Source of the DNA: a virus
Length of the DNA: 64,000 nucleotides
Strand: one strand, 5' to 3'
Virus record (IMG/VR): IMGVR_UViG_3300019776_000521
Coordinates: 1-64,000 of that record
The notes under the pieces are model-generated. The model searched no databases. It had not been told where the DNA came from and saw only the letters and a list, made by a program, of their open reading frames with translations. Shown in pieces: positions 21,815-49,679 of this stretch (the stretch's first letter is position 1; each line of letters opens with the position of its first letter). The position numbers and the translations under genes were made by a program.

Positions 21815-22732
21815 TTAAAAAGTTAGGGAAGCACCGACGTAATCTTCCGAGAAATAAGTGAAGTCTGAATATCCCTGACTTCTCAACGACCCACCATCGG
21901 ATAACTGAGTCGATTCCGCAAGAAACCTATTGAACGTTGTTTGAACCAAAAGTAAATCAGACACCGTTCCTAGATCAGTGGTTCCTTTTAAAAACTCCAT
22001 TGTCTGATCATCAAGAATAGTTGCAGCACCATCGATGTCATCTGTCGTGTTGACTTGATCGTAGAGTTGCTTGCTTTTTGCAATAAACAGCAACTCAGCA
22101 ACTGCAGCACTATCACCCAATGGTTTGTCTAAAGTCGTTGCAATTACATCTGTTGTGCTTGCGCTATCTGACAATGCTTTGAAAAAGTCAATTACATCTG
22201 CATCAGAAAAGCTGCCGGAATCAGTAAGATTTTTGATAACGCTTTGCGTTATGAAATCAGAAGTTACTGAACTATCACTCAACGGTTTATCAAAACCAAA
22301 AACAACAGTGTCTACAGCTGCGTAACTGTCGTTGATAGCCTTAAAAAACTCAATTATTTTGGTGTCATTTGCACTGGGTATCTCGCTCAGCCCTTTAGTG
22401 AACTCTGCTGCAATGGCATCAGAAAGCGTAGCGTTGTCCACAAGGCTTTTGAAAAAAGACTTGACCATCACATCCAGTGATGTAGCCGAGTCTTCTTTTA
22501 TAAGTCGAGTGATCCAGTGACCCAAGGCATACAGCAGCTTCATTCTTGAAGCTTCTGCAGTGGCAGCAATGCTGGCCACGCTTACAGACGCAGCAATTTT
22601 TGCTACTTCTACAGACGCAGCAATTTTTGTCACTCCTACAGACGCAGCTATCCGTGCCGCTACTACAGACGTAGCCATGTCCAGCCGTGCAGCTGCAAGT
22701 GATATTGCGGCTGCTACGGCAGAAAGCTTCAT
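21815..22732 (-). CDS. repeat-rich putative structural protein
   Basis: IAASV repeats, then repeated K.L.D....D units. Confidence 0.65.
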   Translation of the reverse strand: MKLSAVAAAISLAAARLDMATSVVAARIAASVGVTKIAASVEVAKIAASVSVASIAATAEASRMKLLYALGHWITRLIKEDSATSLDVMVKSFFKSLVDNATLSDAIAAEFTKGLSEIPSANDTKIIEFFKAINDSYAAVDTVVFGFDKPLSDSSVTSDFITQSVIKNLTDSGSFSDADVIDFFKALSDSASTTDVIATTLDKPLGDSAAVAELLFIAKSKQLYDQVNTTDDIDGAATILDDQTMEFLKGTTDLGTVSDLLLVQTTFNRFLAESTQLSDGGSLRSQGYSDFTYFSEDYVGASLTF

Positions 22733-23064
22733 GCAAGCTCCTCACGGACCTTGAACTTGAGAAGAGTAAAAATGGTCTCTCTTAGGCCACTGGAGAGCAC
22801 CACTTCGATCTCACCTTCGTAGTCCCCTGCTTCCACATCCAGGTTGCCTGCAGCCCATTCGATGTAGCAGATACCCTGTGTAGCCATCCCAACCAGGATG
22901 GTGGCTTGTCTGGAAAACAGGACTACCTCGGTATCAACCGCACGAAAATGCAGCGTTACAGAGGCATTGGTGAGGTCTATGGGCAGGTTTGTGAGTTCGT
23001 TCGTCAGCGTGAGCTTGATCTGAGGCCCAGTGTCGTTACGAACCAGTTTGATTTTTTCACTCAT
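22729..23064 (-). CDS. BppU-like Ig-fold baseplate/adaptor protein
   Basis: PIDLTNASVTLHF...GDYEGEIEV. Confidence 0.65.
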   Translation of the reverse strand: MSEKIKLVRNDTGPQIKLTLTNELTNLPIDLTNASVTLHFRAVDTEVVLFSRQATILVGMATQGICYIEWAAGNLDVEAGDYEGEIEVVLSSGLRETIFTLLKFKVREELA

Positions 23065-23208
23065 GTGCAGGATCTCCGACGTTCTTTGAGATCCTGCTTA
23101 AACAGGATCAAAGGGATTTAGGTCGGAAGTTCCTGCAATGATCAGACATCCGTTTCAGGCCGCTATTACACCACAGAGTCAATTAAGCCAAACACACCAG
23201 TCCTGTTT

Positions 23209-23694
23209 TCAGGGCTGGATTGGCCATTGGATATTGAGCGGATCAGGCTGGCTCGTGACATCACGCAAGGCTTGCCGATATACCTGCCAGGAAGCGTACA
23301 GAGCCTCTCCAAGGCGTTGCTTAGCCGACAAGGTATCAGTCCAGTCAGACGTAGCCAAAAGGCTTCCACGACGCAGCCTGACAAGCTCCCAGGCTCTTTC
23401 AATGCCTTCCTGGATACGCTGCGCTTCACCGTAAGGAAGCCAGCCTTCAGGAGGCTCTTGAAGCAGCCCTGAAATGGTGAACACCGAAAGCTTTTCAGAT
23501 GTTGGATCATAAAACATTTGCCCACGACGATCGACGTAAAGAGTCCAGTTGTCGCCTACACGCCGCCACACCATTCCTACAGGACAATCGCCTGTTGGTG
23601 CAATGAATTCTTTTGGGCCTTGATTGACAAACTCAGAGGCCAAGTAAGTCGAAATCACAAACCCATTTTCATCAGTCTTTGCAAGTGTGTTCAT
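23209..23694 (-). CDS. tail fibre assembly chaperone
   Basis: VRLRRGSLLATSDWT...WQVYRQALRDVTSQP..WP; start set by ATGA coupling. Confidence 0.8.
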   Translation of the reverse strand: MNTLAKTDENGFVISTYLASEFVNQGPKEFIAPTGDCPVGMVWRRVGDNWTLYVDRRGQMFYDPTSEKLSVFTISGLLQEPPEGWLPYGEAQRIQEGIERAWELVRLRRGSLLATSDWTDTLSAKQRLGEALYASWQVYRQALRDVTSQPDPLNIQWPIQP

Positions 23695-25823
23695 AGCTTG
23701 AATAGGCTCCATGCATAGTTGTCTAACCTGATTGAATTTACTGATACTGCAGTAGTTACGTTTCGTATTGAAACAGTGCACCACAGCCAGATTCTATTCG
23801 TAGGGCTGTTATTACCAGCGCTTCCCACTGTAAAGTGAGTTGACTTTTGCCTGATTTCGCAACTGATGTAAGTGGAAAACAATTCAGTTGGAGAACCTCC
23901 ACCAAACCACGTTACATACGAAGTATCAATTTTAAGCAATGCTCCGTAATACTGGTTTATGGAAAAATTGGCAAAGTTAGCATCGTCAATACCAGTATCA
24001 ATCCAAAAGTTATGTCCAGTGTCTTGGCTGTACGCTGTCGTGTAATAAGTATTGTCACCACTTGTATAACTGGTGGTGGAAGTCGTGTTTAGTACTACAC
24101 CTAGATAACCACTGCCAGAAGCAGCAGAATCCCGTCTTTGAATTCTGACTCGATCTGCAGTTACAGTCCCGTCGTTTAAAACACTGAATCTTCCGCCAAC
24201 AGTTGCAAAACTTTTGGCAGTCATTGCTCCATTCACAATGTCAAAGTTGCTGTTGTATATGTCACCAGCAGCAGTTACTTGAAGATATTTTCCAGTGTTG
24301 AAATTTCCAAGAAGCAACCCACTGGGTCCAAGGTAAAAACCATTACCCGAAGTTGGCCAAGCGTATCCAGAATAGGAACCACCAAATATTTCGTTGACTT
24401 GAAGGTAGTTGGCTTTGATCTTGCCATTCTCAATTACCACTGCACCTGCTTCATCTCGAAGCTTGGTAAAAGTCAGTGTGTTGATAACAGCCTGATCAAT
24501 GAACACTTCATTGTTGCTGATGATGAATGGCTTTTTCTTGTTGGCAGCAGTTCGACCAACCCAAAAGGTATCAACATCAAACCCAGCTTCAACTGTCGTG
24601 CCGTCGTTGTAAATACCAAATCCACCAATCAACCCATTCACAGTCACCTTGGCTGTGTACAGAGCACCTATCTGCGTGACTTTGCCATCCACCGTGTTGA
24701 TGTTGGTTTGCAGCGTAGTCTGAGCCGAAGCAATATTGTTGTTTAGCGTTGCCTGAGAAGTAGTGATAGCACTGCTGATCGCACCATCCGTCCCTGTCTT
24801 TGTGTAGTAGTTGGACTGCAAAGCAGCAGTATTTGTGTAATTAGCAAGAGAATTGTTCAGGGTCGTTGTTGACACCAGCGTAGACGTTGCACTCGAAATT
24901 GCCGAGTCGGTAGCCGTCTTTGTGTAATAGTTAGTTTGCAGTGACGCTGTATTTGTGTAATTACTTAAGGCTGTGTTTAGTGCCGTGGTTGAAACCAGCG
25001 TTGAAGTAGCCGAAGAAATTGCGCTATTGGTTCCAGCTTTTGTAAAGTAGTCATTCAACAGCGTTGCACGAGTAGCAGGAAGACCTGTCGTCGCGTTGTT
25101 TACCTGAGCATTCAGCAGTGTGTACAAAGAAGCGTTTGCTTCGTCTCCAGTCACCCTGGCAGATTGTTCCTGTTGAATCAAAGCCAAGTTGCTTTGGTTT
25201 GCTGCTGCCACAGTATTAAGTTGCGTTACAAGTGCGGAGTCGCCGTCCTGGCGATCTGTGATCTCTTCATTGAGAAATGTGAGCGCTTGAGTAACGCCGG
25301 TTTGTACTTGAGCCAAAGCTGTACTCAATGCAGTGTTGGACGCAATCCTGTCGTCAACCTCATCTAAAAGGTCTTGATAGTTCAGAGTGATTTTGTCAAT
25401 TTCTGTCTTCAAAGATTGAGCCAATAATCCTGAATCAATCTTGCTGGTCAACAACTCGATCATGTTGTCAATCGTAGGCCGAGCTATAGCCGAAGCTGGG
25501 CCAATCAAATCACCTATCGTACCGTTTACCGATACGATTCTGATCCAGTAGTAATACGTCAGCTGCGCGTTGACAGTGCTCTTGTCATAAAAGAAATTGC
25601 CACCAACAGTAGCAATCACTATTGCAGAATTGAAGTTGGGGAGAATACCCCGATACAAAATCACATGTGATACTGCAAACGGATTGACTGTTGGATACGT
25701 CCACGAAACATCAATGCCGCCAAACGCAGGAGTGGCAGTGAGAATGCTGTTGTTATCAGGGTCTCCAGGCTGAGGCCAATTCCCCGTACCAGTACCGCAC
25801 ACATTAGTTGAGCATGTTGCCAT
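23691..25823 (-). CDS. tail tip / host-specificity protein (DUF1983-like)
   Basis: FN3-like N-terminus, coiled coil, GLIGGFG...KPFII...VFIDQAVI. Confidence 0.8.
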   Translation of the reverse strand: MATCSTNVCGTGTGNWPQPGDPDNNSILTATPAFGGIDVSWTYPTVNPFAVSHVILYRGILPNFNSAIVIATVGGNFFYDKSTVNAQLTYYYWIRIVSVNGTIGDLIGPASAIARPTIDNMIELLTSKIDSGLLAQSLKTEIDKITLNYQDLLDEVDDRIASNTALSTALAQVQTGVTQALTFLNEEITDRQDGDSALVTQLNTVAAANQSNLALIQQEQSARVTGDEANASLYTLLNAQVNNATTGLPATRATLLNDYFTKAGTNSAISSATSTLVSTTALNTALSNYTNTASLQTNYYTKTATDSAISSATSTLVSTTTLNNSLANYTNTAALQSNYYTKTGTDGAISSAITTSQATLNNNIASAQTTLQTNINTVDGKVTQIGALYTAKVTVNGLIGGFGIYNDGTTVEAGFDVDTFWVGRTAANKKKPFIISNNEVFIDQAVINTLTFTKLRDEAGAVVIENGKIKANYLQVNEIFGGSYSGYAWPTSGNGFYLGPSGLLLGNFNTGKYLQVTAAGDIYNSNFDIVNGAMTAKSFATVGGRFSVLNDGTVTADRVRIQRRDSAASGSGYLGVVLNTTSTTSYTSGDNTYYTTAYSQDTGHNFWIDTGIDDANFANFSINQYYGALLKIDTSYVTWFGGGSPTELFSTYISCEIRQKSTHFTVGSAGNNSPTNRIWLWCTVSIRNVTTAVSVNSIRLDNYAWSLFKL
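24775..25060 (-). repeat. 120-bp (40-aa) tandem repeat, about 2.5 copies
   Basis: Y(F/Y)TKxxTxxAISSA recurs; DNA at 24781, 24901 and 25021 aligns. Confidence 0.85.
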
Positions 25824-36216: not shown

Positions 36217-36493
36217 AATCGTCACTGCACTGAAGCAGTACATCCACAATCAGGGCATCAACCTGACTGGGAAAGAAGTCACCATCGCCTTTACCGCTGG
36301 TCGCAAGGAAAGCGGTATCAGCGCTGAGTTGACCATTGAAGACTCCAGCATTCCTGGTTTCTCCGAAGCTGACAGTGTGGTTGCTCCGGTCACCTTGACG
36401 GTGGTTCCATCCGACTCCGGCAATGATCGACCTGCAGAGGGTGATTCCGAGCCTGAACCTGTTGCAAAGACGCCTACCGGCTTGTTCAGCTAA
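36191..36493 (+). CDS. N4-like hypothetical protein
   Basis: MQIQLKQTEI...FTAGRK..G; ends GLFS. Confidence 0.7.
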   Translation: MQIQLKQTEIVTALKQYIHNQGINLTGKEVTIAFTAGRKESGISAELTIEDSSIPGFSEADSVVAPVTLTVVPSDSGNDRPAEGDSEPEPVAKTPTGLFS

Positions 36494-36505
36494 CAGGTCG
36501 CAGGC

Positions 36506-36730
36506 ATGGGCGTACTCAAGGGGATCGGCTATACCCTAGCCGCTATCCTGGTTCTTGCAGTACTATTGATCGGAGGAGCGCTCATATCTTCATTTGTTCT
36601 CGTAGCAGGATTTTTCCTGTTCGTGGCAGCTGTTGTGTCTCTAATCGCACTCTGGATCAAGGAATGCTGTGAATCAGTACCAAATCGAACGAAGCAAAGC
36701 CAAAGAGCAGGCCCCAAAGAAGGCGCTTGA
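36506..36730 (+). CDS. small membrane protein
   Basis: Long hydrophobic stretch, probably two TM helices. Confidence 0.65.
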   Translation: MGVLKGIGYTLAAILVLAVLLIGGALISSFVLVAGFFLFVAAVVSLIALWIKECCESVPNRTKQSQRAGPKEGA

Positions 36731-36770
36731 GGCACTCTTCGATGAACCGCCCAAACCCAAAGGAGTACCC

Positions 36771-37076
36771 ATGGCTAACAAGATTGATGATCTTCAAAAG
36801 CAGATCGACGCCCTGCAAAGGGAAAAAGATGCGCTACTGTCCAAGGAGAGATCCTTGGCCATTGAGGACATCAATTCCAAAATCAAGACTTTCGGCATCA
36901 AAGCCAGGGATCTGGAATTTGGAGAAGGGGCGAAAGCCTCCGCCATTGGCAAGCCCAAGGTAGCCATGAAGTACCGATCAGGTGCCAACTCCTGGTCCGG
37001 TCGTGGACGCAAACCCAAATGGGTTGAAGACCACCTTACGAAGGGTGGAAAACTTGAGGACATTCTCATCAAGTGA
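36771..37076 (+). CDS. H-NS family DNA-binding protein
   Basis: N-terminal coiled coil; KYR....SWSGRGRKPKW; AGGAG before ATG 36771. Confidence 0.85.
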   Translation: MANKIDDLQKQIDALQREKDALLSKERSLAIEDINSKIKTFGIKARDLEFGEGAKASAIGKPKVAMKYRSGANSWSGRGRKPKWVEDHLTKGGKLEDILIK

Positions 37077-37105
37077 TGGAAACCAGTGGCTTGCTTGGTT
37101 AGAAT
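37077..37105 (+). promoter_or_regulatory. candidate sigma70 promoter
   Basis: TGGAAA-17 bp-TAGAAT. Confidence 0.4.
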
Positions 37106-37109
37106 GCAA

Positions 37110-37450
37110 GCCCGACTCATCCCCGTAAGGGATGGCCATCAAGCAAGCCACTGAGCCTGGTAGTCGCGCTCCGGGTCGTTTCAGATGACAACAGCCGCAA
37201 GGCTAATTGGCAGTGGCTTACTTGATGGTGATTCGTAGCACAGCCGATCCTGTGTGTAAGCCCTTGTCGTAACCACATGCCAATGTGGGGGCTACGATTG
37301 GCCACCATCACCCAGCAGCGGTAATACACGATTTACCAGTGTGAGCCGAGTCTTTTAGTAGATAGGCAAGCAACAGCACAAGAAAATTCGTGTGACATCC
37401 CGGAGAGAGACGGGAAGAAACCCCCCAGGTAACACTGGGGGGTTTTTCTT
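37110..37450 (+). ncRNA. putative structured ncRNA of unknown family
   Basis: No credible ORF; many helices including AGCC-GCAA-GGCT; bounded by candidate promoter and terminator. Confidence 0.55.
37415..37450. terminator. bidirectional terminator between middle and late modules
   Basis: AAGAAACCCCCCAG...CTGGGGGGTTTTTCTT. Confidence 0.85.
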
Positions 37451-40400
37451 TTACTTCACAATTGCCATCGCAGTGTGCACCGTAGCCAAGTTGTCCAGTG
37501 CACCAAAGTACTGGAAAGCTCCAGAGTGCAATGGATTGTTTCCAATGTGCTGCGTAAACGAACTATCCAGAACGATGGGTCCGAGTTCCATGTAATGATT
37601 CAGTGCAATGGCTGACAGTACACGGGCCGGGTTCTCCCTGGCCAGCTTCAGCAGCACCCGTTGAATGCGTAGGAAGTACTTGGTAAATGGCGTCAGGCCC
37701 ATGTCGTCCGTGTACTGCAAACCACGGTGCATCGGGATGTCGTAGTTCACAAAGGCATCCGACGCTTCCTGAATTGCAGCTTCACGGCTCAACGGGTTCG
37801 TGCCCCTGCTCACCAGGTGCTGGTACAGCGTGTACCGAGCCACGAAGTCCGACAGCTGTGTAATGCGGCTCAGAGTCTGGTACATGTTGGTGTCATGCGT
37901 CATGTACACCGCCCTGCCTGCAGCACGAATCTTGGGGTTCAGCCTGCTGGTGAACTTCTCCGTCTTTCTCACAAACTCACTCTTGTACGAGTAGATGTTT
38001 TCCTCAGCAGCAAGATCTTCCACGATCGTAGGCATCAGCCCTGCTTCAATCAGTTCCTTGACCGGATTCCTAGCAATCGCGTCTTTCAAGCGAACGATTT
38101 CATCCTTAATTTCCTTTTCCTTACCCAGTCCGTAATCGACCTCCAGCATCGTCTGCAGATCCGCCAAACGCTGGCTATCTCTCTGGTATGCCGTAGCACC
38201 TTTCAACGCCACCAGGTGATGCTGCAATACGTCCTTCAACGACACGCCTGACATGGCAAGCAGCGACAAGTTCGACCAGATGTTCCCAAGCATCACAAAG
38301 CCAGTCTTGACCACAATGATGTCTTTGGTCTCGGCTACCAATTCCTGCCATGCACGTTCGCCCCTGGTGATCACTACGGCTGCTCTCTTGGCGTAATCCT
38401 CTGCGTCAGCTGCAGACAAGCCATGCCGCATGCCTGCGTAGTTTGCAAGCACTGTCTGCACCACATACACAAACAAGCCTTCCAGCTTGTTTCGTGCATC
38501 AGGATCCTTCTGGAACATCGACGCCAAAGTCAGCTTGCGATACCCAAACATGATGTCCAGTGAATCGCTGCGCACCTTCATGCCGTCCCTACCCCACACT
38601 GCCCTGATGTCTTTCTTCGTAGCATCAGGCAGTAAATCCCAGATCGCACGCATCTCAGGATCAGTGCTCCGATCGCCAACTTCAACGTAAGAATCCTTGC
38701 GGGTTGCGTACTCCAGTTCGTACTGTTCACGCAATACAGTGACTGCTTTTTTGTTCTGTTCCCGACTGGTCTCCTTGTCGTAGATCGAACCAGCAATCAC
38801 ACCGATCAGATTCTCAAACCTGTTGTCCCGCTCAAGCAGGTTGTCCTTGGTGGACTCAGCCATCATGTAGCGCCAGTTCACGATCGCACCTGTCTCGTTG
38901 TAGACAGGAATCATGTGGTTTTCTCTTTCAGCTGACAGATCCCTACGCGGATCACCCATACCTTGCATAGCAGCCAGCTTTTCGTTGGTGATGGTCGCTT
39001 GCATGCTTGCATTCTCAAGCCCGTTCAGCGTGTTCACGTTTACGTAGCCGCTGTGCTTTTTGCTGCCCCTAGACTTCATGCTGGACAAGGAAAACGCACC
39101 CGAAAGCCAAGGAGACAAGCCACCGTCCCTGAGCACGTAGATTCGCTTAGTTTCGGTATCCGGGTCAGCACGATCGTTAGACACCAGTGCGCCTGCCGAG
39201 TAGCCCTGGTTCACAAGCTCCTTGCCTTCTGCCTCGGTAGCAATCTTGATCGCTGTATGCGGGTTTAGGATCTCCGGCGTGTAGCCATGGATCATCAGCG
39301 CAGGATTGCCTTTGAACAACCGTTGTAGCGACTCCTCTTCCAGCTGCTTGTGCAGCTTCAACAGGAACTCAACACCGTTGCCATTGTTATCAGTTCGACT
39401 GTTTTCAGTCCTGAAAACTTCTTTGGCTTGGCTCAAGTGGTCACCTGCTGTGTACTTCAAGGCGTACAAAGAGATCAATGCTGCAATCACAGGCTCTGCC
39501 TGTTTTGCTTCAGCCTCAGAGATCTGCCGCTGGTACTGAGTGTTGGCCATCCTGGAGATCAAGTGTGCATTGAGCATCAGCACAGGAATTCTGGCTCGTC
39601 CAGTTGCTTTGAAGTAACCCAAACCATTGATCTGTTCGATGTACTTGTCTTTGTATTTAGAGGTCAGCTGAGACTCAAAGTTTTCAATGGCTTTGTCTAC
39701 TGCCTTGTAATCCCCAACCAGCTTCTCCAAATCAGCAACGCTGTAGTGATTCAGCAAGTTGTGCAAACCAGTTCTTAGAAACACAGCAGACACTGCAGCT
39801 TTGGCTTCCTTGCTCATTGCTTTGCCATTCTGAAACACGCTCAGCACAAGCTTCGAGTGCTGCGTGATGATGTTCTTGCGCTCACCTTCATGGCGCTTGG
39901 TTTCACGCAGCAGAGCATTGAACTTGTCCAACGGTCCCTTCAGTTCATTGAGCAAACTTGCTGCAATGCCTTGCCTGCCTTTGAACTGCTGATCACGAAG
40001 AATTTTCAATCCGTCAATCACTTGCTCCACCCGATCATTGGCAATGGTTCGAGCTATGCCCCCTGCTGCTTGAACAAACGCATTGCCGTTGTTACGAACA
40101 AATGACGAACCAGCAAGGTCACCTGCTTTTTCCCGGATGCCATCTGCCAGCGCTTTGACGCCTCTTTCAACTGGTTCAAGAATGCTGCGCTCTGTTGCAC
40201 GCTTCTTGATGAGCACTCGCTTTTTGGCTTCGATGTCCACCAGCTGGCCAACCAACGCTTCCAGCTTGGCGTCAGCGTTCTGACCAGCGTAGGTGTGCGT
40301 GAACTTCTCATTGAAGAAATTCAAAATGCGCTCAAAGATGCTTTCGAGCTTCTCGGTGAACGTCATGTCCTGGGCTGCTTTGCGTGAAGCAACCTTGGTT

Positions 40401-43400
40401 GCTCTTTTCAACAGCGTATTGAACTTTTCGCTGGCCAGGCCCAGGGCTGCAAATCGAGCCAGGTAATCCGAGCGATCGCCGTTGTTGCTCTCCAGCTTGA
40501 ACACAAAGTCGTAGTCTTCCTGGGACGCAAAATCCGATGGCTTGAGCGTATTGCGCATTTCAAGGTACAGATCAGCCAGCTGCTTGTAGGCAATCTTGGT
40601 TTGGGACTCGTTGCCGTTCAACGCTGCCCGCACGGTGGCTTCCACCTGCTGCATGGCAAAGTCTTCCTGTGCACTACCTGCAAACCCAGACGCCACAATC
40701 GATGATGCAAAGGGAGCGTTGCCTGTTTCCATGGCTTTGAGCCATACCGCCAAGGGATTGCCTGCCTCGGTCTTGCGCATCTGCTCTGCAAACGCACCAA
40801 ACGGGCCGTGGAGCTTCTCTACGATGCCACCCAGTAGGTTGGCCAGGTGCTCCTGGAACGAAGGCTCTACGGAGCCATTGGCCAAGGCGTTGTGGATGTC
40901 CAGGGTCGTGTACTTGTCGATCTGCTCGACGGTCTCCTGAGCAAGGTTCAGGTCGGCGTTGCTTGTCTTCTTTGCTTGAGCCGCTTCCGCAAACAATCCC
41001 GACACATTTGCAACCAGCACAGCCATGCCGTTGTTGAGATTCTCGTCAGGCTTTTTGAACAGCAGTTGCGTCAGCGTAGCGATGAACTTCTTCATGCCGG
41101 TGATCAGCGAGGTGCTGCCGGTCTTGGACTCCATGGTGATCTTGCTCAGCACATCACGCTGCAGGCCCAGGTTGGTCATGCCCCAAGCCACGAACTCTTG
41201 AACGTTGGCCAAAGCTGCCGTGTAGTCGTTCAGTCCGTTTTGCTTTGCATACTCTTGAGCCTTGACCCGCAGAGCTTCAAGCTCAGCCACCAGTGCTGCT
41301 GCTTCGCCGGTTGGCTTGTCGATCACCCGTGCAATCGCTGCGTGCACCAGTTCATGCAGCAATGTTTCGGCTGTCAAACCAGAGTTCTGAAACTCTGGAC
41401 TGAGTACGTAGATTTCCTCCTGGCCATTCTTGACGACGTACCACCCACGGGAATTGGTTGTGGGCTTTTCCAGAACCATGCTTTCCGCTGTCTCGGATGT
41501 CACAAACTTGATCTTCAAGTCAGGGCTAACCACCCGACTGACCAAAGCCAGGATCTTGCGATTGATTGCATTCATCCGTCCAGGTGCACCAAGCAGTGCA
41601 ATCACTTGGGACGCCGAGGCATTCGGATTGGCTTTGAAAAACCTGACCAGATCGCCATCACTTTCAATCTTTGGCGTACCGATTGGTCCAAACAGACTAT
41701 CGGCAGTAGCAACAGGCTTCTCGGTTGCAGGAGCAGGCTTTTCGGAAACACTCATGCCCAGGGCTTCAGAGATGATCACAAGAGCTTCTTGTTCCTTGGC
41801 AGAAAGCCCCTCTTTCAACGCAGACTGCATTGCTGCAGCATCACTACGATCGGCTTCGGTGACTTCGTAATTGCCACCTTCGAGTGCGTACTGATCAACC
41901 GAACCCATCTGGCTCAATGCTTCAAGACGCACACTGTCTGCGCTGAAAGCCGTGCTTGTTGCGTTTTGCAGCATGTCGCTCAGCACCGTGTCAGGGCTCA
42001 TCTCGTTCTCACCTGCAAACTTGTTCAACGCTTGCGTGAGATTCTCGACAACCTGAACAGGAAGATCCTTCTGAGCCAACAGCTCAGACAAGCCAACAAC
42101 CGTGCGAGACAACATGTTCGCCATCTCCGTTGCCGGAGAGTAGTTCAGCAGTGCACTCCAAGTAGCTTGATTCAGGTTCTGTGCTGTCTGACTAAATCCG
42201 CCCAAACCAGATCCATGAGCATCATGGATGTTTAGCACTTCATTGCCATCTGCAGCGTTGTGTGAGATTGCAGAGTCCAGCGAATGCGTGGACATCACGA
42301 CCATTGCTACGCCAGGATTGCTTTCGATCGTTTCAAACGCAGTAGCTTCGACCGATGATTGCTCAACGTAGCCGCCTTTCTTCTTGCTCCAAACCTTGGT
42401 TCCTTTGATTGCAGAACCAAACTTGACATTGCTTTTGAACGTGCTGCGAGTGCTGAGCTTGCGGCTTGATTTCGATGCAAACAGGCCAGCACGCAAGGAA
42501 CCACTTTCCTTGGACATGAGCGTGTGCATCACAGGAGCAAGCTTGCTCACTCGTTTCTTGAGTTCTTCCTGCTGCTTGAGTGTCAGATCGTGAATCGGAC
42601 GGTTCTTGCTATCTACTGCAATTTCACCAGACGCCACCAACTCAGCCAGGTACGCATCACGCAAGCCCATGTACGCTGCGTTGTACAGCTCGAATGAGAA
42701 CTGAGCACTCTTGTTCAGTGCATCGCGTTTGCTGATGAAATTGCCAAAGTCAGCGGACATTGTTTCCGACACTGCTTTGCCCAGCGTGTTCTTGAAGCTG
42801 TTCTTTAATGCCTTGATCTGATCTGAATCAAACTCGTAAGCAAGCAGCTTTTCCACAGACATCAATGAAAGCTTGGCGCCATCACCACCCCTCAGCAATA
42901 CATTGATGTTGTTGATAGTGGCTCGAATATCTGCTTTGCCTGCAGCCACATCTTCCATGCTGGAGTAGATGGATTCAATAAAGCCATCGGCCATGCTGTC
43001 TACAGCCGAACCAACAGAGGAGCCAAAGATCATCGCCGTCAAAGGCGTCTTGATGATGTTTCGACGCTTCTTGAGAATCTCAGGTGTCTCAAGAGTCAGA
43101 TTCCCGGTAAACGCATACACAGCGTTCAAAGTTGCACCAATCTTGCTGTCTTTCAGCAGCATCTTCTGCACGGCATTCGTCATGTGCAATGCAGTGATCT
43201 CGTATAAATCTTTGGCACCAGGCTTACCACGCCAAACGTTGTAGTTGGTGTTGGGATTGCTTTTCTCGAAGAACCCACCACGATTGAGCAAGCCAAACAA
43301 ATCCTTCACAGACTTTGCTGCACCAAGCAGGATATGGCTCAGCATGGGGCCATTGGTTACCCCGTCTACCTCGCCCATCATCTGAACGGAAAAGCTGTTC

Positions 43401-46400
43401 TTGCCATCAAGCTGCGCTTGTGCTTCCGTAGCCAAAGCCATCAGTGCATCCAGCGAATGAAAATTCATTCCGCCTTTCTTGACTCCAGCAAGCAGGACTT
43501 TTCCTTCTTCTGAAGTGATGCCACCTTCAAACACTGTCTTGCGCAACACTGCTACAGCGGCTTTGATCTCCGGCTGATTGACGTAGGATTCATAAGCAGC
43601 CAACGAAGTCTTGTTGGCTTGCTTGTCTGTCTTGACTCCCAGACCTTCAAGAACCCTGAGCCGAAAGTTGTCCATCTGATCGGCATTGCCCATATCGACC
43701 ATCGTGGTCCATGCGTTGCGAAATAGCATGAAGCGATGGATCTTGCTGGTCTGCGGATTGATGACGTTGGTGGCAATACCAACTCGTTGCTGCTTCCACA
43801 CCGAATGCTCAAAATACATTGGAGCTTCGATGTCAGCCATGCTTTTGACAAACTCCATGAACCTATCCAGTTCACGAAGCAGCCCATCGTTCTTTGCCTG
43901 CAAACCTGGCTTGTTGACTGCATGAGTTTTGGTGTCGGAAATCTCAACGACACCTGCAATGCCTTGAAGCACATCGTCACCAAGCTGCGTGATCAGCTGC
44001 CACATGTCTTGCCGCACATAGTTGGCTTCTGCATTCTTGGCAGCAACAATCTTTGCAAGCTTCTCCGGTACGTTCTGGTTGGTGTTGCGTGTCTTTTTCT
44101 GCACAAACGGAACTGGCTCAAGGCTGGGTTCCTTCAAACCAGACTCTACTGAAAACAGCTTGTCGAGCACTCCTTGCGAACCAATGGATGCCTTGACGAT
44201 CCGCTCTGCATCAGCAGGCAAAGTGCTCTGCGCATTCCTGGCAAGTTTGACGAAATGAAATTCTGCGTTCGTGTTCGTGCTTTCCTTGTTCGTCAACGCA
44301 GCCATGGTCTCACCTGAGACTGTTGACCTTTCAAGCAGTCCTAGATCCATCATCAACTTCCATGCATGTGCACCCAGGGAAGCTTCCAGGTCAGGCATCA
44401 GATTGACTGGGGCATCCTTCGACACTTTGAAACCAAGCGCCTGTACAACTGCTTGGCCAAGCGAGTTGCGCACCAGGTTTTCCCTTACGCCTACGTTGCC
44501 GAGCACCATGCGTTCAGCTTGCGAGACGCTGACAGTTTCATCCCGATCGAGAATCGCGTTGATGTCTTCGTCAGTGTTGTACAGATTCTTGGATGCAGCT
44601 TCTGCAACCCAGCTGAACACTGCATAGCTGATTGCAGTCTTCACATTCTGATCAACATCTAGCTTTCCATCGTTCTCTTGGATCAGGTACTGCATCATGT
44701 CTTCGTACCGGAACTCTTTGGTACGAGCACTCAGATTCTTTTGAATCAACCCTTGCCATTGCTGGTTCAGTTCTTGAAACAGCTGCAGCACTTCTTGCTG
44801 CTTGCCGCTGAGAGACTTGATGCCAAGGAAATCCAGAACATTCTGAGCACCCTGGCTCAGGAAGTTTTTCACCTTCACTAAAGGCCGCTCAGTCAGATCG
44901 CCTTCACGACTGGCTTGCTGAGTGAAGAAGTCTGCAATGAGGTTACGAAGAGGAAACGATGTCCCCTCCGTGGACTTTTCCTGAAGCGTCGTAACAGCAC
45001 CAGGCTGCGTAGACAGTGCACTTGCGACCTCTTCAGAAACTGGAACAACCTCTGAAGGGGTCGTGCTAGTCTGCTCAGTAGACTGCAGTTGACCTTGATT
45101 TGTCTCAGGAGACGCAACAGTTGTCCTAGTAGAGCCGGAGGCTCCTACAGACGCAGCAGGCTCACCCGAAACACTTTCTACGGTTTGTCCAGCGGCGGAT
45201 TCAGTTGCTGCGGTTGCTGGTACTGAGGGGTTGACGGCTCCTCCTTCAACTCCTCCGGTCGGCTGACTCGTACCTGCTTCAGTCGAGGGCGCAGTTTCTG
45301 TGCGATTCGGACTGGCTTGTAATCCTTCGAGTGTTTGCGATACGTTCGAGACATTACTGACTCCATTGGAAATAGGTTGGGCAAACTTCAGCCCGTAGGC
45401 TGCTCGAAGCTCTGTTGCCGCCTTGGTCAGTGCATCCGATTCAATCTGAATGTTATCAACAATTTTGGTGCTGTTCCTGACAATATCCAGGCCACCATTT
45501 TGCTGACGTTCTTTTTGACTGGGCCATTTCCCAGTTTCAATCGACCAGCTTCCATTGCCATCACTAACAATGCGCCGCTCCTGCCCGTCTTTCTCAAACA
45601 GGGCTTTTGCTTCAGCAGCCACTTGTGCTTTCTGCTGATGGTCGCTGACAAAGTTGTCCAGCAGCTGCAACTGCGCAGTAGCGGCTTTTGAGTTGTTTGC
45701 TGCCAGTGCAGTCGTGACATTGGCTCGGTATTGCTGAATACCGATGTTCCCTTTGCCGCCATAGAAAACCTCCTTCGAGACCTTATCCATGGTCTTGAGT
45801 TGGTTCTCTGCTTGCCGTGCTTGCGTGAATGCCCGCAGGTAGCCCCGCTGCGGGTCCGTCAGGCCGTTTGTCGTGTCATTGGCAAGCGACGCAGCCAGGT
45901 TGGTATCCAGGCGCTCTGGCGTGGCCATAGACAGGTTGATGATGCTGTCCGCTGCAGCCTGTGAAGCTACCGGATCAGCAGCAGTGATCTTTGCAGCCTC
46001 AGCTTCTACATCCAGCTCCTTGGATTGGTTTTCCTGATTGAAGTTATTCAGCACCTCCTGAGCTGATGCAATCTGCTCATCAAGCCGAGAGATCTGCTTT
46101 TGCAACCTTGGACCAGCGTCTGTCTCCTTGGCCAGGGTTGCAAGTTCAGCTTCCAGAGCATCGACGGTAGGCTGATCTCCAGCTTCTCTGGCTTGAACCA
46201 GTTGAGCCATGTAGCCAGCCACAGCTTCAGGCGAGATAGAAGCGTAGTTTTCTTCTGCTTTTTGTTTCTGCTCAAGCAGATCAGACACGATGCCCGATGC
46301 CTGCTCAAACTTTGCTTGTTTCAGTTCGGGCGTAGCGGTCGGCAATTGGCTGTGGCCATACAAAGCCGATACAGCCTGATCTGGGGCGTAGGACGGGCTT

Positions 46401-47647
46401 TTGGGATCCAGGAAGGTAGTGACATCACCTGAGACAATCGCAGCTTGTAGGGCTTCTGCTTTCGTTGCGTCGGCTACTTTCTTTTCAAATTTAAGCAGAG
46501 ACATTTCGGATGCAGACTTCAAAGTCTGAATACCACCACCCATGATTCCGCCCATGAAGGCACCCTGACCAGCAGCAGCACCAACGCCATCAAAAAGCTC
46601 TTGTGCTGGCTTAATCTCCTTGACTGCAGAATTTCCAAAATAGCGTCCGCTACCCTCTTCTATTCCTTCCTGCCCAGCTTCTCCAACAAATGCTTTGGGT
46701 ACAGCAACAAAACCACCTGCTTTCTTGCCAATCAGAGCTTTCTCAATTGCAGTACCACCAGGAAGTGCAGAAGAAAACAACGAAACTGCTCCTGCTTTAA
46801 GCGTAGCTTCTCCGGCCAACTGCGATGCAATAGCTTGCTTGGCTTGTTGAGGACCAAGGCTTTCAGCCAAAGCTACATACTCAGGGTTTTGATCCCAAAC
46901 AGCATCAGGCAACGACATCATTCGCTGCATCGTGTCTGAACCAACATCGACACCTTGCAACACAGCGCCCGTACCAACAGCAGCAGCTGTGCCACTCTTT
47001 TCCACAGCAATCTGTCCGGCTTTGGTTGCTGCAACTTTAGGCAGTGTTTTGGCTGTAGCAGCAGCAGCTAGTTCAGCACCACGACCTACTTTGCTCATCA
47101 CTCCCAGTTGCGCTGCTTGTTGAGCCAAAAACTCAGGAATGCTTCCTGGGTCTTTTGCAGCTTCCCAGAATGCAGCACCAAACTCTGCAGCAACTTGCCC
47201 AGCTACACCTGTTACGCCATCACCTAAAGCTTCCCGTGCTGCTTTGCCCGCTTTGCCAGCAACCACTGCTTTTTCTTGATTTTTGGCTTGAGCAAAAGCT
47301 GATTTCAGTTTTTCTCGTTCATCAGACATTTTGCTGATGTCTTGTGTTTCAGGCCCGTACCAATCACCAGTGGTAGCTTTGTCGTAAACCATCGCTGGCA
47401 ACTTGGCCAGTCCATCGATACCTTGAACAGCTGACAAAGCCAAGTCTTTTGTGTAGTCCCCCCACGACCTACCTTCATCAATGGCTTGATCTCTGGCTAC
47501 TTGCGCAGTGTTTTGCGCCAACGCTTGCCGGTAAGTTTCCAAGCCAGCAAGCTTCTCTTGACGAGCTTGAAGAATTTGATCAATCTTTTCAGGATTCGGC
47601 GCACCATACTTTTGAAGCAAATACTGATCAACATTGAAGGTGGCCAT
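37451..47647 (-). CDS. virion RNA polymerase (N4 gp50-like), about 3398 aa
   Basis: Start MATFNV; no Cys seen; EVDGVTNG, RNIIKTPLTAMIFG, IHDA; synteny. Confidence 0.95.
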   Translation of the reverse strand: MATFNVDQYLLQKYGAPNPEKIDQILQARQEKLAGLETYRQALAQNTAQVARDQAIDEGRSWGDYTKDLALSAVQGIDGLAKLPAMVYDKATTGDWYGPETQDISKMSDEREKLKSAFAQAKNQEKAVVAGKAGKAAREALGDGVTGVAGQVAAEFGAAFWEAAKDPGSIPEFLAQQAAQLGVMSKVGRGAELAAAATAKTLPKVAATKAGQIAVEKSGTAAAVGTGAVLQGVDVGSDTMQRMMSLPDAVWDQNPEYVALAESLGPQQAKQAIASQLAGEATLKAGAVSLFSSALPGGTAIEKALIGKKAGGFVAVPKAFVGEAGQEGIEEGSGRYFGNSAVKEIKPAQELFDGVGAAAGQGAFMGGIMGGGIQTLKSASEMSLLKFEKKVADATKAEALQAAIVSGDVTTFLDPKSPSYAPDQAVSALYGHSQLPTATPELKQAKFEQASGIVSDLLEQKQKAEENYASISPEAVAGYMAQLVQAREAGDQPTVDALEAELATLAKETDAGPRLQKQISRLDEQIASAQEVLNNFNQENQSKELDVEAEAAKITAADPVASQAAADSIINLSMATPERLDTNLAASLANDTTNGLTDPQRGYLRAFTQARQAENQLKTMDKVSKEVFYGGKGNIGIQQYRANVTTALAANNSKAATAQLQLLDNFVSDHQQKAQVAAEAKALFEKDGQERRIVSDGNGSWSIETGKWPSQKERQQNGGLDIVRNSTKIVDNIQIESDALTKAATELRAAYGLKFAQPISNGVSNVSNVSQTLEGLQASPNRTETAPSTEAGTSQPTGGVEGGAVNPSVPATAATESAAGQTVESVSGEPAASVGASGSTRTTVASPETNQGQLQSTEQTSTTPSEVVPVSEEVASALSTQPGAVTTLQEKSTEGTSFPLRNLIADFFTQQASREGDLTERPLVKVKNFLSQGAQNVLDFLGIKSLSGKQQEVLQLFQELNQQWQGLIQKNLSARTKEFRYEDMMQYLIQENDGKLDVDQNVKTAISYAVFSWVAEAASKNLYNTDEDINAILDRDETVSVSQAERMVLGNVGVRENLVRNSLGQAVVQALGFKVSKDAPVNLMPDLEASLGAHAWKLMMDLGLLERSTVSGETMAALTNKESTNTNAEFHFVKLARNAQSTLPADAERIVKASIGSQGVLDKLFSVESGLKEPSLEPVPFVQKKTRNTNQNVPEKLAKIVAAKNAEANYVRQDMWQLITQLGDDVLQGIAGVVEISDTKTHAVNKPGLQAKNDGLLRELDRFMEFVKSMADIEAPMYFEHSVWKQQRVGIATNVINPQTSKIHRFMLFRNAWTTMVDMGNADQMDNFRLRVLEGLGVKTDKQANKTSLAAYESYVNQPEIKAAVAVLRKTVFEGGITSEEGKVLLAGVKKGGMNFHSLDALMALATEAQAQLDGKNSFSVQMMGEVDGVTNGPMLSHILLGAAKSVKDLFGLLNRGGFFEKSNPNTNYNVWRGKPGAKDLYEITALHMTNAVQKMLLKDSKIGATLNAVYAFTGNLTLETPEILKKRRNIIKTPLTAMIFGSSVGSAVDSMADGFIESIYSSMEDVAAGKADIRATINNINVLLRGGDGAKLSLMSVEKLLAYEFDSDQIKALKNSFKNTLGKAVSETMSADFGNFISKRDALNKSAQFSFELYNAAYMGLRDAYLAELVASGEIAVDSKNRPIHDLTLKQQEELKKRVSKLAPVMHTLMSKESGSLRAGLFASKSSRKLSTRSTFKSNVKFGSAIKGTKVWSKKKGGYVEQSSVEATAFETIESNPGVAMVVMSTHSLDSAISHNAADGNEVLNIHDAHGSGLGGFSQTAQNLNQATWSALLNYSPATEMANMLSRTVVGLSELLAQKDLPVQVVENLTQALNKFAGENEMSPDTVLSDMLQNATSTAFSADSVRLEALSQMGSVDQYALEGGNYEVTEADRSDAAAMQSALKEGLSAKEQEALVIISEALGMSVSEKPAPATEKPVATADSLFGPIGTPKIESDGDLVRFFKANPNASASQVIALLGAPGRMNAINRKILALVSRVVSPDLKIKFVTSETAESMVLEKPTTNSRGWYVVKNGQEEIYVLSPEFQNSGLTAETLLHELVHAAIARVIDKPTGEAAALVAELEALRVKAQEYAKQNGLNDYTAALANVQEFVAWGMTNLGLQRDVLSKITMESKTGSTSLITGMKKFIATLTQLLFKKPDENLNNGMAVLVANVSGLFAEAAQAKKTSNADLNLAQETVEQIDKYTTLDIHNALANGSVEPSFQEHLANLLGGIVEKLHGPFGAFAEQMRKTEAGNPLAVWLKAMETGNAPFASSIVASGFAGSAQEDFAMQQVEATVRAALNGNESQTKIAYKQLADLYLEMRNTLKPSDFASQEDYDFVFKLESNNGDRSDYLARFAALGLASEKFNTLLKRATKVASRKAAQDMTFTEKLESIFERILNFFNEKFTHTYAGQNADAKLEALVGQLVDIEAKKRVLIKKRATERSILEPVERGVKALADGIREKAGDLAGSSFVRNNGNAFVQAAGGIARTIANDRVEQVIDGLKILRDQQFKGRQGIAASLLNELKGPLDKFNALLRETKRHEGERKNIITQHSKLVLSVFQNGKAMSKEAKAAVSAVFLRTGLHNLLNHYSVADLEKLVGDYKAVDKAIENFESQLTSKYKDKYIEQINGLGYFKATGRARIPVLMLNAHLISRMANTQYQRQISEAEAKQAEPVIAALISLYALKYTAGDHLSQAKEVFRTENSRTDNNGNGVEFLLKLHKQLEEESLQRLFKGNPALMIHGYTPEILNPHTAIKIATEAEGKELVNQGYSAGALVSNDRADPDTETKRIYVLRDGGLSPWLSGAFSLSSMKSRGSKKHSGYVNVNTLNGLENASMQATITNEKLAAMQGMGDPRRDLSAERENHMIPVYNETGAIVNWRYMMAESTKDNLLERDNRFENLIGVIAGSIYDKETSREQNKKAVTVLREQYELEYATRKDSYVEVGDRSTDPEMRAIWDLLPDATKKDIRAVWGRDGMKVRSDSLDIMFGYRKLTLASMFQKDPDARNKLEGLFVYVVQTVLANYAGMRHGLSAADAEDYAKRAAVVITRGERAWQELVAETKDIIVVKTGFVMLGNIWSNLSLLAMSGVSLKDVLQHHLVALKGATAYQRDSQRLADLQTMLEVDYGLGKEKEIKDEIVRLKDAIARNPVKELIEAGLMPTIVEDLAAEENIYSYKSEFVRKTEKFTSRLNPKIRAAGRAVYMTHDTNMYQTLSRITQLSDFVARYTLYQHLVSRGTNPLSREAAIQEASDAFVNYDIPMHRGLQYTDDMGLTPFTKYFLRIQRVLLKLARENPARVLSAIALNHYMELGPIVLDSSFTQHIGNNPLHSGAFQYFGALDNLATVHTAMAIVK

Positions 47648-47687
47648 ATAGTCTTTCGGTCTGAAGGAAGTGGTAGCTATTCTAAAG

Positions 47688-47712
47688 AAAAAGCCGGGAG
47701 TTACCCGGCTTT
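47688..47712 (-). terminator. hairpin/terminator upstream of vRNAP
   Basis: AAAGCCGGG-agtta-CCCGGCTTT with A run on left (T run on minus strand). Confidence 0.65.
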
Positions 47713-47714
47713 GA

Positions 47715-49679
47715 TTATTGCCTTGCTCTAAACACTGGTGGATAAACAGGATTGGGGTCTTTCCACAAGCCACGCTTTTCTTTACGTGCAGTGTTTTCTG
47801 CAATGTTGAGATCAACGTTCCTGAGAGTTTGCTGCGCAAACGCTTTGTACACCCAAGCTGCACCTTGCTCTACCATGGCATGGTCAAGACCTTTGCCTTC
47901 AATCTCAACCTGACAAATAGATCTACCGGCGTACTTGCCATCAGGACGAACAATTCTGATGTTCACTTCTTTGTTGAGAATCAGCTCTTCCAGACGTTTC
48001 TTCGATTCCTCTCCAAACGGCTGACCATTTTTGTTGTACTGCTTCTTTGCAGTCTCCGGTGCGTCGATCGTATCTATCCTGCAGTTGATTCCGTTTTCAG
48101 AAGAAAACGTGTCTCCATCAGCAACGTAGCTAACTACTGCTTTTACCCCGGTGCCTTTTGGAATAGCACCAGGAGCAGCTTTTACTGCGCTGACTGGTTG
48201 CTTCCATTTGACATCTTTGGGTAGCTCTATCGGATCAGTTTTAGCTACCGGAGAACCATTGACAGGATTGAGAGCAAAGCCAGTCGAATCAGCTACGGCT
48301 GGCTTTGATTTTGACGAAGTAGAAAAACCGCTGTTGAAGCTAACAGCAGCTGGAGCCTCAGTTACCTCTTTTTTTTTTTCCGGTGCGCTTGTTTCAGCTT
48401 TTGCACTGGAGATAGCTCCGTACCTCTGAAATTCTTCGATCAGCGGATCAACGGCCAGAGTCTGAGGAACATCAATCAGACCACCTCGTCCAACAATCCT
48501 CTGTGTTGGTCCACTAACCTTTGGTTTAGGCAGCAGACTTTCAATCTTCTTATCAAAGCTGTCAGCGTAACCTTTGCTACCAAACCAGTTGGTATCAACT
48601 GAAGAAAGCAAAGCCGATTTCACAACACTAAGCGGAACAGGTACGTTGACTGTAATCGGCTTTCCATCTTCACCAATGGTAGTCCGAGTGATACCATTTT
48701 TGGCAAGATTGGAAATTCTTTCCATCAGGTATGCACGACCGTTGCTGTCGTCTTTGCCACCAATTCCGTTAGTCTTTGCAATGGTAGCAAGCTCTACAAG
48801 ACTGTCTGGAGTCAGCAGCCCACCTTTGTACACGTTGTCTTGTAACGCAAGATCTAGCTTCTTGACGTTTTGAGCAGCAGCACGTTCACGCTCTGCTCGG
48901 TCAGCAGTCAATCTTGAAGCGTTTGTTGAAGCTTCTGAAGCACTGATGCGGGCTTGTATTTCTTTTCGAACCAAGTCGGCATTGTTAACTGTGTTTTGAA
49001 GACTTTGGTTATCAAGACCAGCTTTGGTAACAGCAAGAGGTCGCAGCAAAGCACGTTGTGATTCTTCTGTGCCTCGACGAGTTTCTTCTGCTACTCGGCG
49101 CTTCTCTTCTTCAGTATCAAAACCAAACCTTGTTGAAGCACGATCTCGTTCTGTCAGAGTCTGCTGCCGCGTATCGATCGTCTTTGCCAGGTTCACGGCT
49201 TCCCGCAGATCAGGTCGAGCAGCCAGCATCTCGCCTGCACGCTTTGGATCCTGCAAAGCCATGAGGTTGATCGCACGAACGTCTGCTTCCTGAGCAGCAT
49301 CCAGCATCGTGTTCTTGTACGTGATGCCTTGAACGTCACGCTGCTGGAGCGTATTAACGCGCCCATCACGAAGAGCATTCACTGCAGCCCGATCAATCAC
49401 AGCGCCATTTGCAGCAACAGCTTGATCCAGTGCACCAGACCTGTTCAAAACGTTGAACTGGTCCACGTTTTCAGCTTGATAAATCTTGCTCAACGCATCT
49501 TGCGTAGCAGCTTGATCTTGTCGTTTCCACAAAGCCTGATCGAAAGTATCGCTTTCTTTGAGAGTGCTTTTCAGGCTGTCAAACGCTCCAGCAAAAGCCT
49601 GTTGCGCATAAGCAAGCGGACGACTGGCATCTGCCAGGGAAGGTCCGGTAACGGTACGCCAAGTGATGGGGGTAGCCAT
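47715..49679 (-). CDS. N4 gp51-like ejection protein with C-terminal thermonuclease (SNase) domain
   Basis: PITWRTV start typical of gp51; DGDT, RIDTIDAPE, KYAGR, GAAWVY, ARKEKRGLW. Confidence 0.85.
   Translation of the reverse strand: MATPITWRTVTGPSLADASRPLAYAQQAFAGAFDSLKSTLKESDTFDQALWKRQDQAATQDALSKIYQAENVDQFNVLNRSGALDQAVAANGAVIDRAAVNALRDGRVNTLQQRDVQGITYKNTMLDAAQEADVRAINLMALQDPKRAGEMLAARPDLREAVNLAKTIDTRQQTLTERDRASTRFGFDTEEEKRRVAEETRRGTEESQRALLRPLAVTKAGLDNQSLQNTVNNADLVRKEIQARISASEASTNASRLTADRAERERAAAQNVKKLDLALQDNVYKGGLLTPDSLVELATIAKTNGIGGKDDSNGRAYLMERISNLAKNGITRTTIGEDGKPITVNVPVPLSVVKSALLSSVDTNWFGSKGYADSFDKKIESLLPKPKVSGPTQRIVGRGGLIDVPQTLAVDPLIEEFQRYGAISSAKAETSAPEKKKEVTEAPAAVSFNSGFSTSSKSKPAVADSTGFALNPVNGSPVAKTDPIELPKDVKWKQPVSAVKAAPGAIPKGTGVKAVVSYVADGDTFSSENGINCRIDTIDAPETAKKQYNKNGQPFGEESKKRLEELILNKEVNIRIVRPDGKYAGRSICQVEIEGKGLDHAMVEQGAAWVYKAFAQQTLRNVDLNIAENTARKEKRGLWKDPNPVYPPVFRARQ

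Follow-up and report, generated by a model that had tools for sequence, protein, structure and literature searches.

A modular array of conserved RNA structures between converging genes of an uncultured N4-like phage

The non-coding gap and its modules

The stretch analysed here (the window) is the first 64 kb of the 73.5-kb IMG/VR record IMGVR_UViG_3300019776_000521, which by its sequence is from an uncultured, N4-like phage. At positions 37077-37450 it holds a gap between converging genes, with an H-NS-like gene on the plus strand and the virion RNA polymerase (vRNAP) gene on the minus strand. Judged by comparison with related phages, this gap is a plus-strand array of four separately conserved structured RNA modules, and not one single switch as an earlier note on this DNA had proposed. 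The gap sequence is single-copy in the 73.5-kb record.

The vRNAP is a 3470-amino-acid, N4-like open reading frame (ORF) on the minus strand (37451-47863), whose C-terminal 499 residues match 474 phage records, with a best identity of 44-45% (LUZ7, KPP21 and LIT1 types). On the plus strand, 5' of the gap, are genes for a Sak4-like protein, an N4-type SSB and a RuvC-like resolvase. The last gene before the gap (36669-37076) encodes a 135-amino-acid protein with an H-NS C-terminal DNA-binding domain (PF00816, 41.9 bits), and an H-NS-like gene is retained at the same place in relatives. The gap itself is non-coding: the program-listed ORFs inside it match no PHROG family. The features of the gap are:

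37077..37105, plus strand: candidate promoter TGGAAA-17-TAGAAT, 9/12 matches
37081..37112, plus strand: predicted leader H-type pseudoknot, two stems with an A-rich stretch between them
37081-85 / 37096-100, plus strand: leader stem S1, AACCA / UGGUU
37088-94 / 37106-112, plus strand: leader stem S2, GGCUUGC / GCAAGCC
37084..37097, plus strand: segment A, inside the leader pseudoknot
37113..37134, plus strand: CGACU linker and GUAA-capped hairpin P1 (CAUCCC-CGUAA-GGGAUG)
37136..37228, plus strand: module B, an 18-bp closing helix CCAUCAAGCAAGCCACUG / CAGUGGCUUACUUGAUGG around an interior with a GCAA-capped hairpin
37223..37310, plus strand: module C, a three-helix domain with closing helix UGAUGGUG (37223-30) / CACCAUCA (37303-10)
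37311..37420, plus strand: module D, a motif of about 110 nt with a predicted pseudoknot
Parts of D, plus strand: tail AGCAGC; hairpin 37320-37, its loop 37325-31 pairing with 37388-94; helices 37339-42/37376-79 and 37345-47/37365-67; a variable hairpin; conserved GGCAAGCAACAG
37395..37417, plus strand: 'punctuation' element, GACA and then hairpin UCCCG-GAGAGAGA-CGGGA
37416..37456, plus strand: intrinsic terminator, stem 37416-37447 of 13 pairs and then the T run TTTTTCTTTT

The plus strand of the gap has a minimum free energy (MFE) of -150.8 kcal/mol (z -5.27), which is reached by 0 of 100 shuffles, and the minus strand one of -148.3 kcal/mol (z -4.62). The earlier note had listed six helices, all of which are present:

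37118-34, plus strand: CATCCC/GGGATG
37193-204, plus strand: AGCC-GCAA-GGCT
37233/37291, plus strand: TCGTAGC/GCTACGA
37273-88, plus strand: CCACAT/ATGTGG
37398-415, plus strand: TCCCG/CGGGA
37114/37348, plus strand: GACTC/GAGTC, not retained in relatives because its 3' partner falls in the variable hairpin of module D

Its proposal of an unannotated, RNA-level structured element is borne out, as no known Rfam family matches the gap and relatives carry compensatory changes, with covariation in the leader, P1, D and the closing helix.

For module D, 27 distinct copies were aligned. RNAalifold finds 18 pairs in this alignment, 8 of them with double changes. In the full structure of 27 pairs in five helices, 91.5% of 728 cells are paired, against only 30-43% when the partner strand is slid by 1-3 columns. 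Fifteen of the 27 pairs change on both sides, and the covariation score is reached by 0 of 500 shuffles; the slid-partner control, unlike the shuffles, takes phylogeny into account, and the two agree. The 4-bp helix GYRU/GYRC is found in three versions (GUGU/GCAC, GCAU/GUGC and GCGU/GCGC), and the loop of the first hairpin, AUACACGA, complements UCGUGU 57 nt downstream in 27/27 copies. The cells hold 91 G-U against 23 A-C combinations, and two U-G pairs are invariant in all 27 copies. From this G-U excess and these invariant pairs, it follows that the functional strand is the plus strand of the window and that the molecule is RNA. Copies of D are 109-131 nt long without 3-nt periodicity, and no frame is open in all of them. 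Model R1 scores the copy in the window at 107.9 bits (E 1.2e-30) and finds one full copy per locus, with 13 hits of 98-130 bits in 37 sources (352 kb).

A longer variable hairpin is present in 16 of the 27 D copies, and most of these long-form loops hold self-complementary cores (UACGCGUA, UAGUGCACUA, UAGCUAGCUA, UAGGUACCUA, GUGCAC). The cores, of 4-10 nt, differ between copies yet stay palindromic (CGCG, GUGCAC, GCUAGC, GGUACC and others), which suggests loop-loop (kissing) dimerisation. Among the related loci, which we number with the prefix L, the hairpins concerned are those of L009, L010, L025, L029, L044, L045, L053, L055, L056, L058, L062, L068, L070, L072 and L073. The window carries the short form, without a palindromic loop.

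In the predicted leader pseudoknot, compensatory change is found in both stems. S2, in which a hairpin-loop segment pairs with the bases just 5' of CCGAYU, has 6-8 Watson-Crick pairs in 9/9 N4-like leaders, and its four covarying versions (GGCUUGC/GCAAGCC, GUCUUGC/GCAAGAC, GUCUGC/GCAGAC and GACUGC/GCAGUC) include a one-base indel that is compensated. The S1 stems, by reading of the leaders, vary yet keep pairing (AACCA, ACCCGCC, CCUGCC, UACCCGU, AGCCC). The A-rich UAAUAAAAU/UAGAAU makes up the third loop. In hairpin P1, four stem positions on either side of a fixed CCCGUAAGG are free to vary; in 19 distinct leaders with seven stem versions, 76 of 76 cells are Watson-Crick, and the scan pattern had imposed no pairing. 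The earlier note had placed a candidate promoter here. TGGAAA-17-TAGAAT is present on the plus strand and is the sole sigma-70-like site in 36400-37900, where 0.9 would be expected by chance. Its -10-like hexamer (TAGAAT/TAAAAU) is kept in the N4-like leaders and its -35 is not; with the leader predicted to form an H-type pseudoknot, the hexamer may just as well be loop 3 of that structure as part of a promoter.

Module B, folded alone, reaches -43.3 kcal/mol (z -5.09). Relatives L018, L025 and L044 carry nearly the same 93-nt module at different positions of the array and in different neighbourhoods, and where GCAA has become GGAA the loop stays GNRA. Other long hairpins have arms that are wholly different yet pair, and their interiors can be homologous (L005, AUAAGAAAUGAAGGCUG..., against L009, CCAUUAGAUCUGGGGACUG...). 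A simple scan with one mismatch allowed found a closing helix of 17-23 pairs after P1 in 12 of 19 loci. Module C overlaps the 3' arm of B by 6 nt and is also present in L024 and L044, where CCACAU/AUGUGG is replaced by CUGCAU/AUGCAG and CUACAU/AUGUGG; its three copies show compensatory or wobble changes in two helices. In pattern scans for further copies of C and B, 13 of 15 and 2 of 6 hits beyond the known loci, respectively, were unrelated sequence.

The 3' arm of the long hairpin mostly ends in UGAUGG, followed by UG, and this octamer pairs with downstream CACCAUCA, with at least 7 of 8 pairs Watson-Crick, in eight arrays. The resulting closing helix has compensated variants in L016 (UGUUGGUG/CACCAACA), L020 (UGAUGGC/GCCAUCA) and L093 (GAGGGUG/CACCCUC). 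Where an array lacks a C-type domain, the arm and its upstream partner have drifted in parallel (CUAUCAG/CUGAUAG in L003, CUAUCAAG/CUUGAUAG in L010). Neighbouring modules compete for UGAUGG, since each has possible CCAUCA partners both upstream and downstream of it, and because of the compensated variants downstream and the joint drift with the upstream partner, both pairings appear to be selected. This dual pairing could be a functional two-state element, or else a side effect of joints whose role is in recombination or processing.

The punctuation stem, which is helix 5 of the D structure, covaries in all five pairs. GACA-stem-GAGAGA-stem closes D and also the unrelated modules E and Y, and the element with a GAAAGA loop recurs in distant N4-like relatives; no additional copies were found within the window. 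The terminator that follows (-23.3 kcal/mol, z -4.85) has the characteristics of an intrinsic (Rho-independent) terminator, abuts the vRNAP stop codon (minus strand, 37451) and is the same in L044.

Module arrays in related phages

A search with the vRNAP C-terminus gave 12 IMG/VR loci, and in four of these, with 71-78% identity in that protein, a homologous gap of 360-600 nt is found at the same place. Homology of the gap was detected by nhmmer in L010 (E 5.9e-21) and L009 (E 1.5e-07). Exact-pattern scans on conserved blocks yielded 19 + 19 + 13 viral, 22 metagenome and 3 genome stretches. The three genome stretches are titled Comamonas sp., Corticibacter populi and Ottowia sp., so the hosts point to Comamonadaceae. 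Module orders were marked by signature motifs in each array, and the orders in the window and eight relatives are:

Window: leader-B-C-D-terminator
L044: leader-M1'-Y-B-C-E-D-terminator
L025: leader-M1-X-E-B-D-FIN
L018: leader-M1-Tarm-B-E-FIN
L021: leader-M1-X-E-FIN
L029: leader-M1-X-E-D-FIN
L009: leader-M1-X-E-D-FIN
L003: leader-M1-E-terminator
L010: leader-B''-E-D-G-terminator

Altogether, 11 related N4-like arrays show 10 different module compositions. L018, L021 and L029 have common flanks, and the difference between them is confined to the cassettes. What the earlier note took for one RNA of about 340 nt is instead at least four modules that are found separately and in other orders elsewhere.

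Module D is also found outside N4-like arrays. L036, an N4-like genome, has it at another place; in L045 it is flanked by a Cro-like gene and a primase/helicase gene, in L053 it lies 5' of thymidylate synthase, in L070 near an integrase, and in L046 and L062 directly after tRNA-like 3' ends. The genes downstream of D are diverse or absent, and in the window none lies downstream. These varied settings argue against a gene-specific riboswitch; this or another gene-specific cis-regulator was rejected for D, as it holds no constant position before one functional class of genes. In the three pattern-found genomes of Comamonas, Corticibacter and Ottowia, D is located in prophage-like regions, and among 150 further genomes of the host family only one 24-bit partial match without the 3' half was found. 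D is rare in host genomes and hence not a host housekeeping RNA.

T-arm-like GGTTCGAT(T/C)CC elements and acceptor-like stems were seen within some cassettes, namely in the L002 and L018 arrays, after D in L045 and downstream of D in L070; ARAGORN calls no tRNA in these cassettes.

Elsewhere in the window (12080-13171, plus strand) an integrase-like protein is encoded, with a match to PHROG 1 (E 2.6e-27) and a Pfam Phage_integrase score of 20.9 bits, which is below the cut-off. Its gene is beside tRNA-Arg (14057-14133), with an HNH gene (14139-14588, minus strand) nearby, and is 24 kb away from the RNA locus. N4-like phages are regarded as strictly lytic, so an integrase-like gene beside a tRNA is unusual. 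Upstream of tRNA-Arg (13870-13920) both array joint motifs, CCGACT and GCCACCATCA, are present, and this region as a whole has no significant structure (z -1.35). A leftward late-type block (14139-25823, minus strand) with endolysin and tail-fibre proteins is set among rightward replication genes. The protein encoded at 10711-11238 (plus strand), after the DNA polymerase gene, matches Nmad5 (nucleotide modification associated domain 5), a hint that nucleotides or DNA may be modified.

Known RNA families and comparable phage systems

A search of the whole window with Rfam 15 at gathering score returned only the tRNA at 14057. Within 36950-37550, at E<=10, there were only 15 sub-threshold matches, the best of which is ctRNA_p42d on the terminator (24.6 bits against a cut-off of 50). 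The arrays of the relatives gave nothing at E<=0.1 or at gathering score, and two full arrays searched at E<=5 gave only look-alikes of terminators and miRNAs. With blastn against 50,697 GenBank phage records, the gap had no hit and D had one of 30 nt (E=1).

Several identities were rejected. A tRNA or tmRNA was discarded as neither ARAGORN nor Rfam finds a tRNA in the gap or in the arrays of the 12 + 19 loci; the only tRNAs at array loci are genuine neighbours in L046 and L049. For a bacterial Y RNA (YrlA-like), there is no TROVE domain in the phage or the three host genomes and no Rfam hit at E<=5 in the two full arrays. An array of non-coding RNAs (ncRNAs) associated with a reverse transcriptase (UG27, retrons) was dismissed with 0 RVT_1 matches in the 73.5-kb phage record. 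For the known self-cleaving ribozyme classes, no Rfam model matches.

Some known phage RNAs resemble the array in part. The species 1 and 2 RNAs of T4 are stable, processed small RNAs in the phage tRNA cluster, transcribed along with the tRNA genes or adjacent to them, whose function was long unknown. D is likewise beside tRNA or tRNA-like elements in L046, L062 and L070, whereas the array of the window is not beside its tRNA gene. ROOL and GOLLD are large, ornate phage-associated RNAs of unknown function. A recent study reports that these structured RNAs self-associate via loop contacts (10.1101/2024.12.08.627333). The palindromic loops of long-form D could kiss in a similar manner, but the modules here are much smaller, have no Rfam hit to either family, and the D of the window is without a palindromic loop. 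A preprint on ncRNA arrays by UG27 reverse transcriptases in prophages describes units of a main hairpin, a basal hairpin and a pseudoknot that are gained and lost between close relatives (bioRxiv 10.64898/2026.09.22.753630). Both systems are phage-borne arrays of structured RNA units. The UG27 arrays, as presented there, consist of repeats of a single unit type and require a reverse transcriptase, whereas the modules of the window differ in type and no RVT_1 is present.

A literature search on N4-like or Schitoviridae ncRNAs found only work on LUZ7. In that phage, the intergenic hotspot orf69-orf70 (sRNA1-3) gives rise to abundant small RNAs (sRNAs) of <250 nt, some of them processed, in late infection (PMC9163698). 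LUZ7 is N4-like too, and its gap has the same neighbourhood, with genes for SSB and gp46-like proteins preceding it and the converging vRNAP gene shortly after. This non-coding stretch (L048 5688-6085, LUZ7 42644-43041) measures some 400 nt and contains a long GNRA-capped hairpin. The hairpin is near-perfect and capped by CCCCGCAACGGGG; it is in style like the long hairpins described here, while its sequence is not alike. By reading, the LUZ7 gap has no sequence likeness to that of the window, three ORFs lie between it and the vRNAP gene, and a modular grammar is described only for the array here. LUZ7 ORF69 and the H-NS-like protein are unrelated (E 2.8).

Readings of the array

We consider it probable, with moderate confidence, that the gap encodes a plus-strand ncRNA of about 370 nt, composed of four cassettes that evolve independently and a terminator, which is processed into trans-acting sRNAs. 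This reading takes up the observed conservation, covariation, strand, modularity and terminator of the array and its absence from Rfam. The cassettes would be the leader pseudoknot with the GUAA hairpin, long hairpin B, domain C and pseudoknotted D, drawn from a pool of RNA modules exchanged among Comamonadaceae phages and prophages. Short conserved CCAUCA / UGAUGG joints would form the bases of the module helices. The array might form the tail of the transcript of the rightward gene block, or have a start of its own at the -10-like element, and host RNases would cut it at the joints into several stable small RNAs. These would act in trans on a host component and not on a neighbouring phage gene. 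We infer such transcription, cutting and trans action from the presence of the cassettes in unrelated phages of one host family, from their inconstant neighbours and from the sRNAs reported at the syntenic gap of LUZ7.

Several points weigh against this reading, in which processing, trans action and a target are the inferred parts. Because the copies were collected by exact DNA patterns, the conserved columns are biased and the diversity is modest, with an effective sequence number of 1.91. Parts of D (GCAGCGG..ATACACGAT...CCAG) are invariant by construction. The putative 7-bp pseudoknot helix of D is complementary in 27/27 copies and never varies, so that covariation says nothing about it, and the search pattern had already set its 5' strand. 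Modules B and C are known from only 4 and 3 nearly identical copies, respectively. On the minus strand, a frame of 62-94 codons is open through B in all four copies; it matches no PHROG family and its flanking sequence differs from locus to locus. Sites complementary to the conserved GGCAAGCAACAG of D are, in two host genomes, many scattered near-matches with no clear target, and do not exceed chance. No public RNA run was found with the gap sequence, only three DNA rows with a small share.

Two alternatives seem unlikely. The array might be a cis-acting 3' end element, in which a stack of hairpins and the terminator insulate the converging transcription units and shield the upstream mRNA from 3' exonucleases. 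Its place between converging genes would suit such a role, as would a terminator that can work in both directions and the hairpins at the same place in distant N4-like relatives. Against it, conservation in sequence extends beyond the stems to loops, junction strands and the predicted pseudoknot, and in other phages the modules are found 5' of genes and next to tRNA genes.

Comparably improbable is that D is a self-cleaving ribozyme or a processing element which trims a tRNA or tRNA-like end lying 5' of it. The core of D is compact, with a predicted pseudoknot and many invariant unpaired bases. In L046 and L062, ...CCACCA ends 0-3 nt before the start of D, in the arrays CAUCA ends 3 nt before it, and tRNA or T-arm-like elements are nearby. 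Against this, many copies have no preceding tRNA-like end and none of the Rfam ribozyme models matches; in a manual layout, D does not appear to fit the HDV-like or the hammerhead pattern.

The model of the earlier note, one switch RNA that folds according to whether segment A is included and that controls immunity or lysogeny, is very unlikely. The complementarities on which it was built are real: segment A (37084-97) pairs with 37140-53 at 14/14 positions, segment B (37136-53) with segment C (37211-28) at 17/18, and the TGATGGTG/CACCATCA helix overlapping segment C at 8/8. The predicted fold does flip with the 5' end, since the MFE structure uses A-B when A is included and the B-C hairpin when the RNA starts at 37112. 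The phage also has an integrase-like gene beside a tRNA, and temperate relatives place D and leader units between a Cro-like gene and a P4-alpha-like primase. However, B-C complementarity is merely the stem of a hairpin cassette. Among the mutually exclusive pairings, the 3' arm of B against TGATGGTG/CACCATCA is conserved and covarying, but no leader other than that of the window complements its own first long hairpin, so that A-B, on which the proposed switch between long and short transcripts rests, is a peculiarity of this window. Segment A is a 14-nt direct repeat of the 3' arm of B, identical to this arm as carried by L018 and L044, and it is part of the conserved leader pseudoknot, which would form first. 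The modules also occur apart from one another.

The comparison with immunity RNAs leads to the same result. P4 CI and P1/P7 C4 are processed phage sRNAs in which a middle segment complements one upstream and one downstream segment. The window has such a middle segment too, but here the upstream complementarity is not conserved, the phage is N4-like and no covariance model of these RNAs matches, whether the whole window is searched at gathering score or 36950-37550 at E<=10. Sites complementary to the conserved GGCAAGCAACAG of D number 9 in the phage against 11.65 expected, thus not above chance. As the locus ends its transcription unit with a terminator that faces the converging vRNAP gene, there is nothing downstream for it to control or repress.

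Hairpins acting at the DNA level, as promoters of a phage RNA polymerase, a replication origin or recombination sites, are very unlikely: early and middle promoters of LUZ7 are DNA hairpins (PMC9163698), the CCATCA/TGATGG joints resemble recombination points and the array adjoins replication genes, but there are 91 G-U to 23 A-C cells, the invariant U-G pairs would turn into A-C mismatches if the opposite strand were the functional one, the loops are 5-13 nt long against 3-4 nt in the LUZ7 promoters as given there, and leader and D are also found in phages that are not N4-like.

Returning to an array of exchangeable cassettes processed into sRNAs, we tentatively suggest a wider picture, which we regard as conceivable though doubtful. 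Comamonadaceae phages might carry a library of exchangeable RNA cassettes, with the joints (CCAUCA/UGAUGG) driving both the shuffling and the two-state pairings. D would be a new catalytic or ligand- or protein-binding class, the long form of which dimerises by palindromic kissing loops, and the array would serve as an RNA-based counter-measure against host defence or to hijack the host RNA machinery.

Very few phage ncRNAs have a known role, and most are single short antisense RNAs. The covariation-supported motif D with its predicted pseudoknot and the leader/hairpin architecture are new to Rfam. The arrays are direct evidence that structured RNA modules are traded among unrelated phages of one host family, like protein genes, and they offer a comparative framework for the small-RNA hotspot of LUZ7, so far unexplained. 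Should the modules prove to act on RNA processing or host defence, they would represent a new class of phage accessory elements that gene-centred annotation misses.

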